Source: Dimargaris cristalligena | Lineage: Eukaryota | Assembly: GCA_003614675.1 (NCBI GenBank) | Contig: ML002235.1 | Span: 1-63,437, forward strand | Direction of reading: 5' to 3' | Length of the DNA stretch: 63,437 nt | Program-made: the position numbers and the translations under genes | The notes under the pieces: model-generated | Database searches by the model: none | What the model was told of the DNA's origin: nothing | What the model saw: the letters and a program-made list of their open reading frames with translations, nothing else | Shown here: in pieces, positions 34,565-62,902 of the stretch | Position numbering within the stretch: the first letter of the stretch is position 1 | How the letters are laid out: each line of letters starts with the position of its first letter

Positions 34565-35111
34565 TGTCACCCAGGTTAACCACTCTCAGTCCATCAAGAG
34601 TCCCAAGGATAGGCTTCTAATAGTAGGTAGGGTTTAGACTTAGCCAAGCAGGCTACTAGCATTAGGTACAGGGTACAGTACTAACTAATAAAGGTTTAGC
34701 AGTAGGTATAAATTAGGGATATACAGTAGGTACACTTATTAGTCAATCTAAGGGGAGTGAGTATATATAGGGTTTATTAGGGGTAAACTAAGGGGTAAGA
34801 ATAAGCTGAGGAATTTAATTAGTCTCAATGGGGCCTAGTTATATATATATATATATATATATAGGTGAGTCTAGAGGGAGGTCCCAAGGGAAGGATAGTA
34901 CTAAGACTAAGGTATAGGTAAATAAGCCAACCAGTTGGCTACTAGTATCTAGAAGACTCTGATAGTAACTAGATGAGTCTAATGGATCAGCATTTGAGTG
35001 GTTAGTATGAACAGGCAGAGTCTGGGTGGGGGAAGGTTATGTGATAAGGGATGATCCCATAGTACCAGTAGTAACTATGGGAAAGCTAATATGGAACTAT
35101 AAGGCCTAATA
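34565..35111 (-). mobile_element. Decayed solo LTR, copy A
   Basis: Colinear along its full length with 41421-41945. Plus-strand ends TGTCACCCA...GGCCTAATA. On the minus strand a (TA)n TATA region (34840-34863) precedes AATAAA (34773-34778). Flanks CAGTT/TGGTC fit a deaminated CGGTC TSD. No CpG. Confidence 0.72.
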
Positions 35112-36317
35112 TGGTCAGAGTTCTAAGCTGGCTAGATGAAGGTAGATTAGATAGCCTGATACCTCTAAACCCTAATACCAGCCCCATTAGCCATATGTAC
35201 TTATCAAGTTATTCTGACTCCACTGGTAGTACCACTCTCATTTAGTACTAACCCAATAGATATTCCCTAATATAAATAGTCTTTCCATATTAATTTTTTA
35301 ACATAATTCCTTAAAATTAAGGTCACTAACATTGGTATAGAGTCAGAAGGTGAAAGTCAATATAAAGTGAATTTATATAAAATAGTTGGTCAGTCCTTCA
35401 TTGGAATGGATCCCTAGTAAATATAATAGTCATAAATAAATACTTACATAAAGTAACACCTAAAATGTATGTTTTATAGAACAAGCTGGATTTTGTATTT
35501 GACTCTTTTTTCTACTAGTTGCTGAAAATAACTGAAATCATCCGCCAACATATGATACTGCGCCATTGAATGGGACTACGTGTGTAAAAATATCACAATA
35601 ACCGGCTATACCTGAAACACATGGGGAATGTATAATATATCTTTAAAACAGGAATCGAGTACCCTCAAGTATATCTTAACGGAAATAGCCGTTCACTGTT
35701 ACTCAGTGAGGATACGGTTATTAAGAACCAGCAACAAGGTAATCGTCGGCAAATGGAGGCCTGGTATTCAGATGGCAAACATGCACAGCAGTAATGGAAA
35801 ATATATAATAATTTATTTGGATTTTGGATTTATAATGCCTACTTTTAGTATGGATCCAAGATTTAAGTACTCAAAGTTGAAATAATAAACGTCAGAGTAG
35901 GCTGCATCATTTGCCCAGAAAAACCAATTGGTTTCTGATGTACCAAGCATATTCCGTGGCAAATAAAAGACAATAATATAGCGGTGAATTATATGTAGTA
36001 CACAGTAGACTTATTGCGTCGTTAAAAAAAAAGGAAAAATAAAAATAAAATGCTGTATCAAACCATTGCGTCTGCACACTGATATTCAGCTGCACTGGAA
36101 GTCCTTTCAGTGTCACATGAGCTTTGCTACCAATCCTATATCTAATATAAAGAATGCGGTAAGGTAAATAAATCCTACCGACTGTAGAGAAATTGAAAAC
36201 CGAATATAAATGCAATTCATCGATAGAGAGAAACTAGGGTCCCCCAGCTTCCTCGTTTTTGGGGGGTTTCTAATTCAGATCTCTGACACCATCTATGTGT
36301 TTGACTTCCCTGATTAT

Positions 36318-37984
36318 TTAAGCGGAATCCAGAGCGGATTGCATAAATCTGGCATTGGGGGTATTGATGAGGATCTCAGGAATGGGCCCAGCCAAGACAC
36401 TATCACTACTCATTACGGAGGGGCGATCACCCAATGTGCCCTTCATAATATCACTATCCACAACAAAGCCCACAGCATTATTGGCTACATCATATCGGAT
36501 TTTGTTACCCAGAGAATCGAAGGGGCACTCCGTAATCTCGGAAAAAAGCGCACTATTATCCGGAGAGGCCCCCAGGGCTGCATTCCATTTCATGGCGTAT
36601 TGTTCCTCGGTATGTCTAAATCCAAATTTCTCGGCACACAGTTGAATCTCGCGAACGAAGCTCGCAGTCTCATCTAATCCATGGTAGAACGGGTAGACTA
36701 AAGGGTTGATGTCATTTTCGACCAGGAGCATGAGGCCCAAGACGGATAGTCTCCATGGAGCCGATGTCCATGTATCCCAGATGGAAGTGAGGTAATGGAC
36801 CATGCTGTCCCATCTATTAACGGAAGCTAGTGTGAAAAGGGTGGCAAGTTGGACCACGTCAGCCTGTTCAGCCGTACACTCGAAACTTTCATGGATACCG
36901 TAGGCAGCATCCGCTGCGTCGAACAAGGTCTGCTTGGCTGGTGCCCAGGCTAGGTTAAACGCCTTCTTGAATGATGCAGAACCGCAGTAGCTCGCCAAGC
37001 GATTCTGGAGTTCCACCACTAGATCGATGTTACCATCGACCGCCAGTCCCAGCATAGGTGACATGGCATACATCTGATCATGGGTCAGTGCCAAAAAGTC
37101 CACCACCTTCCAACGGGTCCCCGCGATCTTTTCGGCATCTACATAGGCCTCTATAGCCAATTTTATTTCGGGTAAGCGCCGATTCTGGTAGGCATCGGAT
37201 ATGTCATCCAGTTTGGAATCAATGTTGTCATCATCATACGAGTCGGCAAAAGGGTAGTAACCGAGGTTGAACTCAAACTTGAATACATCGATCAGAGAGT
37301 GCTTTTGATCTTGACTGAGATTGTCATACTCTAGGGTATAATCACTCACGGTGGGAATTTGAAGTTTCATCTAAACAGGGTTGCCAATCCAGATAAAAAT
37401 ATAAGAAATAGCGGGCAGGGGATTGGATTTAGACGAATACTTGGGCAAAAATGGCTCTTCAATATCGTCGCAGTCTATACCGCGGTGGGAAATGTAGCTA
37501 GCTCTACCATCAATGCATTCCAGAAACAACGGGCGTGGTCACTGGATTTTTGTGACAAGTTGGAAGCTTGGTAATACCACCTAGGTAAACTCGACCCACA
37601 CAGCCTTCTGAAAGAAAGACCGTGCTGTATTATTAGTATGGCCCATATTCCTAACAACTTCCCTCCTCCGCTATCACTTACCATTCTGTTTCGATAATCA
37701 ACACTAAACTGGGCCAGGCTGTTGAATTGGCGCGAAACTGCCAGGAACTCATAGAGGGTGACAGTGTCAGTATGACCTGCGATGGCCTGCAGAGTCTCAA
37801 TAGGGAATATACCAGTTGGTTCTCTAGGGTGGGAAGTGGTTCGGACCATTGGGGGCACCTGCGGTTGGTTTTCTTGGGCGGACAGAGCTTCCTGGTTGTC
37901 GAGTGGGGTGAGCACGGGGCTGGCTGCAATCATGGCCAGCTGAGCCATCCAGAAAAGCGAGAGGGTAGATACGACAATCTTCAT
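36318..37984 (-). CDS. Secreted F-box protein, candidate effector; exons 37682-37984, 36318-37370 (about 451 aa)
   Basis: Signal peptide MKIVVSTLSLFWMAQLAMIAA|SP; F-box IFPIETLQAIAGHTDTVTLYEFLAVSRQFNSLA (aa 59-91); GTAAGT donor at 37681 and TTTAG acceptor at 37371 join the two ORFs in phase 0. Confidence 0.8.
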
Positions 37985-38215: not shown

Positions 38216-38223
38216 TTTATATA
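38216..38223 (-). promoter_or_regulatory. Putative TATA box of the secreted F-box gene
   Basis: TATATAAA on the minus strand about 230 nt upstream of ATG 37984, followed by a pyrimidine-rich leader. Confidence 0.4.
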
Positions 38224-41420: not shown

Positions 41421-41945
41421 TGTCACCCAAGTTTACCACTCGTCCATTAAGAGTCTTGGGGATAGGCTTCTAATAGTAGGCAGGACTTAGGCTTAGCCAA
41501 GCAGGCTACTAACATCAGTTACAGGCACAGTACTAACCAATAAAGGATAAGTGCAGGTGTATGTAAGGGACATGCAGTGGGTACACTTACTAGTTAGTAC
41601 AAGGGGGTAAGTATATATAGTGTTTATTAGGGTAAACTATGGGGGTAAGAATAAGCTGCTGTTTAATCTAATCCCAGTGGGGCTAGTTATATATATACAG
41701 GGGACTACTCTAAAGGGAGGTCCCTGAAGGAAGGTACTACTAGGACTACTGATGGATAAACTAGCTAACTGGATGGTATAGGGGCATGGAAGACTCAGCT
41801 GGGAACTGGAAGAGTGATTAGATCAGCCCAGGAGTGAATGATGGGACTCTCTAGTCTAGGAAGGGAAGGGTTATATGATATAGGAGGATCCTATAGTACT
41901 GGGGGTGACTATGGGAGGGTTAATATGGTACTATAAGGCCTCATA
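41421..41945 (-). mobile_element. Decayed solo LTR, copy B (direct repeat of copy A)
   Basis: TGTCACCCA...GGCCTCATA; shares blocks such as GATAGGCTTCTAATAGTAGG, CTTAGCCAAGCAGGCTACTA and GGGGTAAGAATAAGCTG with copy A; minus-strand TATA then AATAAA (41623-41628). Confidence 0.72.
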
Positions 41946-42516
41946 AGGATAGACAATCATTAAGTCCAGATTAAGTCAGATTAGGAGGGCCAACATGGTT
42001 ATTTATTTTTATTTTTAGTGGTTTAAAAGCTGCAGTCTAAGTATGGCCAAGCTGTATAGCCATTGTTCAATTGCTGTGGTTTTTGTATGGTTTAGGGCTC
42101 ACAAAGGTGCCCAACTGGCTAATGATATCTACAGACCAAAGGTAGCAAGGAGGGAGGGGTACGAATAGGGCAAAAAAAGAATTGAAAAGACAAAACAAAA
42201 TAAGTTAGGGTGGGCCTGGCTGGCAAGTTTGCCACTAGGCTTATTTGGATACAAACTACACCCCCTGTTCCTTATGAACAGTTGGTCATTGGTTTTTTAT
42301 ATAAATACTCCGTATGAATCTATTAATAGGGAAACCATCACCCCACTCTTCTTTTTTGGACTGCTATGCAACTAGCTAATCCCTAGGTGCGAGTCGCTGT
42401 TTTCCTGGTGTCATATTCAAATTGAATACTATATGGGTGTAGTTTTATTCCCCATAGTCATATATCCCCACAATGTGGCCAACTCTTATTGACACAATAA
42501 CTCCAGCCCCATCATT

Positions 42517-47956: not shown

Positions 47957-48823
47957 ATGGCCAACGACACTTCGTCACTTCTACTTCGGCGCCAACTTAA
48001 AGGTATTTCTACCCCTCGTACTTTACTCCATCTGCCTTATAAACCCGATGGACTTGCAAATTACCCGCCCCACCACTATTATCCGGCCGCCAGTTCGGCT
48101 TCTATGGCCAAAAAAACCCGCGCTACCGCATCTGGCTAAGAATAAGGCGACCATGCAGTAACCCCATTCCCCAGGGAATAGCATGGGGGCTGTATACGTC
48201 AACCGCCGTGGGGCAGGGGCTTACACGGCTGCCCAACATGTGGGGTGACTTCACGATTACTTCTACCAGTTCCCTCCGCCACCTTTCTTACCTTGTCCCA
48301 ACGTTTGCCTCGCTGCTATATTCCTATTATTACTCACCTCCCCACCACAATCTTCATTCAATCGGTAGAGCTCAACAAAGAGGGTGTTGCTGGCTTCTCG
48401 GCTGGGCTGGTCGACGATGACAACATCTACGAGTGGGAGGTGATGATTATGGGGCCTCCGGAGACCCTTTACGAAGGGGGCTACTTCCGCGCCCGCCTGT
48501 CATTCTCCCAGGAATACCCCGTCCAGCCCCCTAAAATGAAATTCGTATCGAGCATGTGGCACCCCAATGTGTACCCCGACGGTGAAGTCTGTATTTCCAT
48601 CCTGCACCCCCCGGGTGAGGACAAGTACGGCTACGAAGACGCCGGCGAGCGCTGGCTACCCATTCATACCGTCGAAACCATCCTCATCAGCGTCATTTCC
48701 ATGCTGTCCAGTCCCAACGACGAGTCCCCCGCTAACTTGGAGGCCGCTAAGGAATGGCGGAACGACTTCCCGCTCTTTAAGAAAAAGGTCCAGCGTATTG
48801 TACGTCGCTCATGCGAAGAGTAG
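47957..48823 (+). CDS. E2 ubiquitin-conjugating enzyme, UBE2G1/Ubc15-like; exons 47957-48002, 48369-48823
   Basis: LLLRRQLKEL, GFSAGLVDD, MWHPNVYPDGEVCISILH, acidic loop PPGEDKYGYEDAGERW, PNDESPAN. Confidence 0.93.
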
Positions 48824-62777: not shown

Positions 62778-62840
62778 AACTCTGAAATAAGGTAGGTGTA
62801 GTTAGGTATGTTATTCCTATTGGAAATATTAAATAGGCAT

Positions 62841-62902
62841 TGTTACTTAGGTTAACTACTCCTAGTTCATCAAGAGTCCTGAGAATAGGCTTCTAATGGT
62901 AG
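62841..62902 (-). repeat. Terminal fragment of the same LTR family as copies A and B
   Basis: TGTTACTTAGGTTAACTACTCCTAGTTCATCAAGAGTCCTGAGAATAGGCTTCTAATGGTAG aligns gap-free to the first 62 nt of copy A, differing only by transitions. Confidence 0.75.

Follow-up and report, generated by a model that had tools for sequence, protein, structure and literature searches.

Several pathogens mimic the F-box proteins of their hosts. Agrobacterium VirF is an injected F-box effector, and the SSGP-71 proteins of the Hessian fly (Mayetiola destructor) are said to carry a secretion signal. PMC4617103 describes the SSGP-71 family and RipG7 of Ralstonia as F-box mimics which are secreted or injected and have the Skp proteins of the host as their partners; an interaction of SSGP-71 proteins with host Skp is reported there, and they presumably imitate the F-box proteins of the host. 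Such mimics are already established for bacteria and for one insect, whereas a family of secreted F-box proteins would be a novelty among fungi. The subject here is a candidate member of such a family, encoded on the minus strand at 37984-36318 of a 63,437-nucleotide (nt) stretch of DNA from Dimargaris cristalligena (contig ML002235.1 of assembly GCA_003614675.1, positions 1 to 63,437). This whole stretch is called the window.

To our knowledge, hardly anything has been learned of the means by which haustorial mycoparasites among the early-diverging fungi manipulate their hosts. The first-pass annotation of the gene, made from the letters alone, guessed at a haustorial mycoparasite, and correctly so, given that the organism is Dimargaris cristalligena. 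The Dimargaritales are parasites of Mucoromycota and Ascomycota by way of appressoria and haustoria, according to PMC9866270. Judged by titles and the starts of abstracts, the literature yielded no secreted fungal F-box effector and no link between Dimargaris and F-box proteins, the top entries on secreted or fungal F-box effectors being about bacteria or insects or being reviews, though the supplementary secretome tables of PMC9391592 and PMC9866270 may list the proteins discussed here. An ascomycete comparative study remarks that material which ties F-box domains to pathogenicity in eukaryotes is lacking (PMC8146833).

The best explanation for the gene, offered tentatively, is that it encodes a three-part protein specific to Dimargaritales, made up of a cleavable signal peptide, a divergent F-box and an orphan all-alpha domain, and that this protein is translocated into the host as an effector that recruits the Skp1-Cullin-F-box (SCF) ubiquitin ligase. 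The protein would enter the secretory pathway of the parasite, be released at the haustorial interface and then get into the cytoplasm of the parasitised fungus, where its F-box would dock on the highly conserved host Skp1. The SCF ubiquitin ligase formed in this way would have a substrate-binding domain supplied by the parasite at its core, and would mark proteins of the host for degradation. The wider claim is that Dimargaritales export a private family of F-box proteins via their haustoria into host hyphae, where the divergent F-box plugs into the conserved Skp1 of the host and the orphan alpha domain picks out the proteins that are to be destroyed; this is possible, and on the doubtful side.

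A host-translocated SCF effector had also been proposed in the first-pass annotation. The mycoparasitic lifestyle, the conserved architecture, the restricted range and the predicted docking of a paralogue speak for it, and the test against the Pfam F-box models speaks against it. In silico, the gene structure is based on homology, the leader and the motif are conserved, the range is restricted, and a paralogue is predicted to dock on Skp1 in the canonical way. That the protein is actually secreted and enters the host, that the copy in the window binds Skp1 and that there is any substrate are inferences only. The effector model accounts jointly for a conserved leader, a Skp1-type motif, a range that covers only haustorial mycoparasites, and a multi-copy family that is diverging.

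The gene was initially read as having two exons, and homology bears this out. Exon 1 (37984-37682, minus strand, 303 nt) has 101 codons and begins at the first ATG of its frame. It is followed by a predicted phase-0 intron (37681-37371, minus, 311 nt, GTAAGT...TTTAG) and by exon 2 (37370-36318, minus), which has 350 codons and a TAA and holds the orphan domain. Both exons are open. In tblastn the Dimargaris paralogues P0005 and P0006 align with exon 1 up to residue 102-103 and with exon 2 from residue 102, and all full-length relatives from Dimargaris and Tieghemiomyces are collinear over the junction. Judged by these alignments, the junction 37682/37370 is the one that homology supports, and a better one than that of the deposited NCBI model.

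That model, the D. cristalligena hypothetical protein P0003 (H4R33_000708), is 100% identical to the exon 2 product and uses the same acceptor (37371). Its donor is however a weak GTGCCC at 37858, after codon 42, which means that the whole F-box-like motif is skipped. In P0004, too, the model leaves out part of the motif, namely its second half. Residue 28 is F in P0003 and L in the window copy, which probably comes from another strain or assembly. Given that the signal peptide and the motif both lie inside the uninterrupted exon 1, their pairing does not depend on any splice.

Other ways to splice this region are conceivable. A nested intron candidate of 57 nt (37681-37625, minus) shares the GTAAGT donor, contains TACTAAT as a branch-like site and ends in the acceptor CAG. 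Removing only this piece leads to a stop at codon 151, and so to a product of 150 residues with the signal peptide and the motif. Within the 311-nt intron, a mini-exon of 39 codons is also conceivable, marked off by a phase-0 GTAGAG at 37507; in the alignment of the Dimargaris and Tieghemiomyces family, no homologue has this insert. The idea that the 311-nt intron is a mobile insertion was rejected, as a second copy was not found within the window.

Signal peptides were judged by simple heuristic rules: the charge of the n-region, the Kyte-Doolittle hydropathy of the core over 10 residues, and the (-3,-1) site. The predicted cleavable signal peptide of the window protein takes up codons 1-21 (37922..37984, minus). 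Its n-region is MK, its hydrophobic core has a Kyte-Doolittle value of 2.1 over 10 residues, and its single (-3,-1) site lies after residue 21, where IAA is followed by SPV. The protein has no second hydrophobic segment, and its top 19-residue hydropathy windows all fall within residues 1-28. By these rules, the leader that had at first been read as a signal peptide is indeed predicted to be one, and a cleavable one, without a further membrane segment behind it.

Equivalent leaders are found on 9 of the 11 N-termini in the family (the window copy, P0004-P0006, P0008, P0009, P0010, P0012 and P0015). All nine have a positively charged n-region, their cores score 1.8-2.5 over 10 residues, and their (-3,-1) sites fall at residues 19-22. 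The rules fail for P0007 and P0011, a near-identical pair, and the N-terminus of P0011 resembles the tail end of a signal peptide; both are probably truncated gene models. The positive n-region together with the acidic flank argues for a translocated C-terminus and not for an anchor that faces the cytosol.

Between the leader and the motif lies a linker rich in Pro, Gln and Thr (codons 22-56, 37817..37921, minus). It is predicted to be disordered, and the equivalent part of P0005 has a predicted local distance difference test (pLDDT) below 40 in AlphaFold2 (AF2). Among the Dimargaris paralogues, leader (77% identity) and linker (70%) are better conserved than the motif (45%) and the C-terminal domain (59%). 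Between Dimargaris and Tieghemiomyces the identity drops to 20% for the linker and to only 22% for the leader, yet the features of the leader are kept. As signal peptide and motif stay together in relatives from two genera despite so low a leader identity, their combination is no accident of a single gene.

The F-box-like motif, with three predicted helices, spans codons 57-101 (37682..37816, minus), as placed by a block alignment and a paralogue model. It was seen in the first reading of the sequence, and it turns out to be conserved in both genera. The motif block consists of 9 sequences and 50 columns, is gapless over both genera, and has an invariant P, F and L. Its register appears to agree with the F-box consensus. 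The window copy is the most divergent one, with 40% identity to P0005 over the block, where P0006 has 72%. Three members (P0005, P0014 and P0015) carry the UniRef label 'F-box domain-containing', which presumably derives from PROSITE profile PS50181.

In the AF2 model of P0005 the motif forms helices at residues 62-71, 77-91 and 95-102, at low pLDDT. For residues 50-110 of P0005, the ESM Atlas puts an F-box cluster first among the feature matches (0.91); the two share 134 features, which is under the bar of 170. Of the ten structure neighbours in the Atlas, nine are clusters of the F-box family, with template modelling (TM) scores of 0.59-0.71 over 53-61 residues, all of them under the bar. 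A word-based search with exon 1 as sole query found only its own family among longer proteins. Within the limits of such a search, the module of leader and motif is not shared with other C-termini. On balance, we lean towards the motif being a genuine F-box that is competent to bind Skp1.

To obtain a stand-in Skp1, metagenome contigs were scanned with a short degenerate Skp1 motif. This gave 111 loci and from these 53 complete open reading frames (ORFs) of 140-200 residues, one of which (L028) was confirmed as Skp1 by Pfam (PF01466 at 1e-29, PF03931 at 1.2e-23). This protein was paired with residues 50-112 of P0005 in a complex prediction with an ESM model, using 3 runs and 3 controls. The docking scores were 0.70, 0.70 and 0.69, and the best of the controls reached 0.02. 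The partner had a pLDDT of at least 74, the contacts agreed for at least 91% between runs, and the motif, modelled together with Skp1, had a pLDDT of 75. The mark for docking is attained by 51 of 78 solved complexes and by 2 of 108 mismatched pairs; for eukaryotes, it is attained by 39 of 65 solved pairs that no older complex resembles, and by 2 of 126 pairs that are unrelated.

In SCF structures, F-box proteins bind to the C-terminal helices of Skp1. The predicted interface joins residues 94-158 of Skp1 with residues 55-88 of P0005, and the predicted contacts include the Pro and Leu that are invariant in the family, along with three conserved residues of the motif block, Glu, Ile and Asp. The docking result shows likeness, not binding.

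No family could be recognised in the C-terminal 350 residues when the gene was first described, and this still holds: there is no Pfam family, no usable neighbour in the ESM Atlas and no fold match in PDB. AF2 was run on an alignment of 11 rows, and in the resulting model only the C-terminal domain is modelled well (residues 111-462 of P0005, pLDDT about 75-95, predicted TM score 0.68). An earlier model from 6 rows had a mean pLDDT of 41 and was unusable. The domain is modelled as all-alpha, with a single small hairpin. Foldseek gave no PDB matches to it at E<=0.001, the best E being 0.49 at a TM score of about 0.1. The top rows (an ATP synthase subunit, trichodiene synthase, PPR10 and COP9 subunits) all have TM scores of about 0.1, and were rejected as noise.

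The sole outside sequence match of the domain is to SdhE/YgfY, a flavin adenine dinucleotide (FAD) assembly factor. It is marginal, covers positions 85-150 of the family profile, at the start of the domain, with E 0.09-0.66 against PDB sequences, comes down to one short acidic motif, and was put down to chance. Leucine-rich repeats (LRRs) do not follow the motif, as there is no Pfam LRR in the domain, which is modelled as all-alpha without a PDB match. Going by its model, the domain is an orphan fold. Its position suggests that it may be the substrate-binding half of an F-box protein. Two of its Cys residues (C341 and C378 in P0005) are nearly invariant.

The Dimargaris paralogues P0004, P0005 and P0006 have leader, motif and C-terminal domain in one chain, and are 53-60% identical over exon 2. 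A HMMER profile search of 1.84 billion cluster representatives gave 6 matches at E<=0.001, which are 2 Dimargaris proteins and 4 from Tieghemiomyces parasiticus (P0007-P0010). Three more members, P0011, P0012 and P0015, the last of which is from Tieghemiomyces, came from looking up clusters and from a further profile search of the word-based kind. No members beyond Dimargaris and Tieghemiomyces were found among the representatives searched. As far as sequence searches go, the family is confined to Dimargaritales, and is small and multi-copy.

In Tieghemiomyces two members are on one contig, five locus tags apart. PMC9866270 reports high BUSCO duplication for the T. parasiticus genome, so that the near-identical pairs there may be alleles or homeologues and not separate paralogues. 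The Tieghemiomyces proteins P0009, P0010 and P0015 have long acidic C-terminal extensions rich in Ser, Asp and Glu, and in P0009 and P0015 a unit of about 50 residues is also repeated in tandem. Within the C-terminal domain there is in addition an acidic insertion, 60-90 residues long, that is missing from the Dimargaris copies.

A number of observations weigh against the effector explanation, and many of these concern the F-box itself. None of the 11 family members, including exon 1 of the window, matches the Pfam F-box models PF00646 and PF12937 at E<=10, in a search where the HMMER filters discard most matches above about 0.1. The hidden Markov model (HMM) check that had been suggested for the motif has therefore failed, and because membership of the Pfam F-box family is lacking, the motif is filed here as 'F-box-like'. 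Matches to DUF6137 (0.0011), DUF4144 (0.049) and TSP_Ig-like (0.065) each occur in 1 of the 11 members and under the cut-off, and were rejected. Run against 177,635 PDB sequences with a limit of E<=10, neither the family profile (539 positions) nor the motif block of 50 columns retrieved an F-box protein. The Trp that is conserved in the third helix of F-boxes is missing, and the Leu that precedes the invariant Pro in the F-box consensus is replaced by Cys in Tieghemiomyces and by Phe in the window copy. Modelled as an AF2 monomer, the motif has a pLDDT below 40.

The docking also has to be read with care. Complexes of Skp1 with F-box proteins have been solved, so the pass may be model memory. 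The partner that was docked is the paralogue P0005, whose motif block is 40% identical to that of the window copy, and the Skp1 is an environmental sequence of unknown origin and not that of the host. In addition, the Atlas and docking support both come from ESM models, and are thus not independent.

Other points against the effector explanation concern the window copy and the protein as a whole. Next to having the most divergent motif, this copy has an early stop compared to two paralogues. Within 36270-36335 (minus), its TAA (36320-36318) comes 16 codons ahead of the ends of P0005 and P0006, and the frame past it keeps resembling their tails until a second stop. The C-terminus of P0004 ends at the point that matches the window copy. 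This suggests either a fairly recent nonsense change or a short form that is tolerated, and the window copy could be a decaying one. Once mature, the protein would be large and acidic and would have few Cys (4 in the 428 residues after residue 23). This is unlike the classic small Cys-rich secreted effectors, though compatible with one that acts in the cytoplasm. Finally, we know of no translocation motif for Dimargaritales.

Much of this would also fit exported, lineage-specific proteins that act outside cells or at the haustorial interface, their F-box-like stretch being a helical module that never meets Skp1. Such proteins would agree with the fact that every HMM-based F-box test was negative, that the monomer model of the motif is of low confidence and that its ESM feature match stays below the bar, and a docking score can stem from resemblance to solved complexes. 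C341 and C378 of P0005 could form a disulfide, like those of extracellular proteins. We nevertheless think this alternative rather unlikely, given that the motif is gapless and conserved over two genera, that F-box clusters make up nearly all of its Atlas structure neighbours, and that three members carry the UniRef name. The predicted interface moreover consists of the C-terminal helices of Skp1 and conserved residues of the motif, at scores that the controls do not approach.

Alternatively, the protein might be an endogenous F-box protein of the parasite which faces its own cytosol and its own Skp1, for example at the endoplasmic reticulum. F-box proteins are after all normally cytosolic or nuclear. 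The leader would then be an anchor, or target the protein inefficiently or to two places, or translation would start at Met46. The uncharged N-terminal stretch is indeed long and reaches 26 residues in Dimargaris; the four copies there all have a Met near residue 46, and the models of P0007 and P0011 begin near the motif, without a hydrophobic leader. The P0011 model is however probably truncated, as it starts in what appears to be the tail of a signal peptide, and the Met before the motif is missing in P0008, P0012, P0009, P0010 and P0015. Canonical (-3,-1) cleavage sites are retained in 9 of 11 members, while the n-region and the acidic flank predict a translocated C-terminus. The leader is also the best-conserved part among the Dimargaris paralogues, which would be odd if it were not translated. 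Among the representatives searched, the family also has no members outside the mycoparasitic order. Taken together, a cytosol-facing protein is distinctly unlikely.

It is very unlikely that the window copy is decaying or mis-modelled while its paralogues function, with the 311-nt intron kept or only the nested 57 nt removed, leaving a fragment of 150-169 residues with the signal peptide and the motif and perhaps a separate product from the C-terminal domain: the canonical nested intron, the premature stop with in-frame similarity beyond it, the divergent motif, an NCBI model that omits this motif entirely and an ATG at the very start of exon 2 would all suit such a state, but both exons are open, the boundaries of the intron give an exact phase-0 junction that is collinear with the homologues, the acceptor at 37371 is also used by the NCBI model, and P0004 shares the end point of the window copy, so that a short C-terminus may be a normal variant.

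The gene stands alone in a stretch of roughly 10 kb (32.6-42.8 kb) of lower guanine and cytosine content (0.37-0.47), where no other ORF of at least 150 residues is found. A TATATAA at 38217..38223 (minus), about 235 nt upstream of the ATG, is a candidate core promoter element by pattern match only. The gene is flanked by two direct repeats (34565-35114 and 41421-41948) of about 550 bp, which share 74.5% identity and are about 6.3 kb apart. They may be remnants of a dispersed repeat or of an element resembling a long terminal repeat one; no ORF of reverse-transcriptase size lies between the two copies. A 63-bp fragment of the repeat element is found at 62840-62902, near the end of the window.

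The wider window holds housekeeping genes: a septin, an E2 enzyme, a kinase, PTPA, GH15, MOSC, IPK, DUF726 and a PP2C-like gene. The E2 gene encodes a ubiquitin-conjugating enzyme (PF00179, 2.1e-46) at 48182-48823 on the plus strand, about 10 kb from the F-box-like gene. This proximity is most likely a coincidence among housekeeping neighbours.

If the effector explanation is true, this would be the first fungal family of F-box mimic effectors, and SCF hijacking would be described for the first time in parasitism of one fungus on another. It would imply a route by which proteins are translocated from a zygomycete haustorium into the cell of a fungal host, and the protein could be used as a marker for such effector translocation between fungi. 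The orphan domain would in turn indicate which host proteins the parasite must remove. A conserved, multi-copy and order-specific family with a signal peptide and a predicted Skp1 interface is a concrete entry point that can be tested cheaply. Should the effector explanation fail, what is left would still be a lineage-specific protein, by its leader a secreted one, with a predicted new alpha fold.

Compared to canonical F-box proteins (PF00646, PF12937), the layout is familiar. A motif of about 45 residues with three predicted helices sits near the mature N-terminus and is followed by a separate, presumed substrate-binding domain; the predicted docking is on the C-terminal helices of Skp1, and the structural neighbours in the Atlas are proteins of this kind. 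Unlike these, the proteins described here have a signal peptide, are not reached by the Pfam models, lack the conserved Trp of the third helix, and have a C-terminal domain that matches no known substrate-binding fold.

With Ralstonia RipG/GALA, Legionella AnkB/LegU1 and Agrobacterium VirF, the family shares the proposed logic of a pathogen F-box that recruits host Skp1 and SCF. The bacterial effectors travel by type III or type IV secretion, where a eukaryotic signal peptide is found here. Their partner domains are LRRs or ankyrins, and their F-boxes are described as such, whereas here the Pfam models failed.

The family is not a relative of SSGP-71 or RipG, as it has no LRR. There is no sequence relationship with SSGP-71, where the part presumed to bind the target is an LRR, in place of the orphan all-alpha domain found here. 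The host is a plant there and a fungus here, and Skp binding is experimental there and predicted only here. What the two appear to have in common, going by PMC4617103, is a eukaryotic parasite, a family in multiple copies, and an F-box, in our case a putative one, at the N-terminus.

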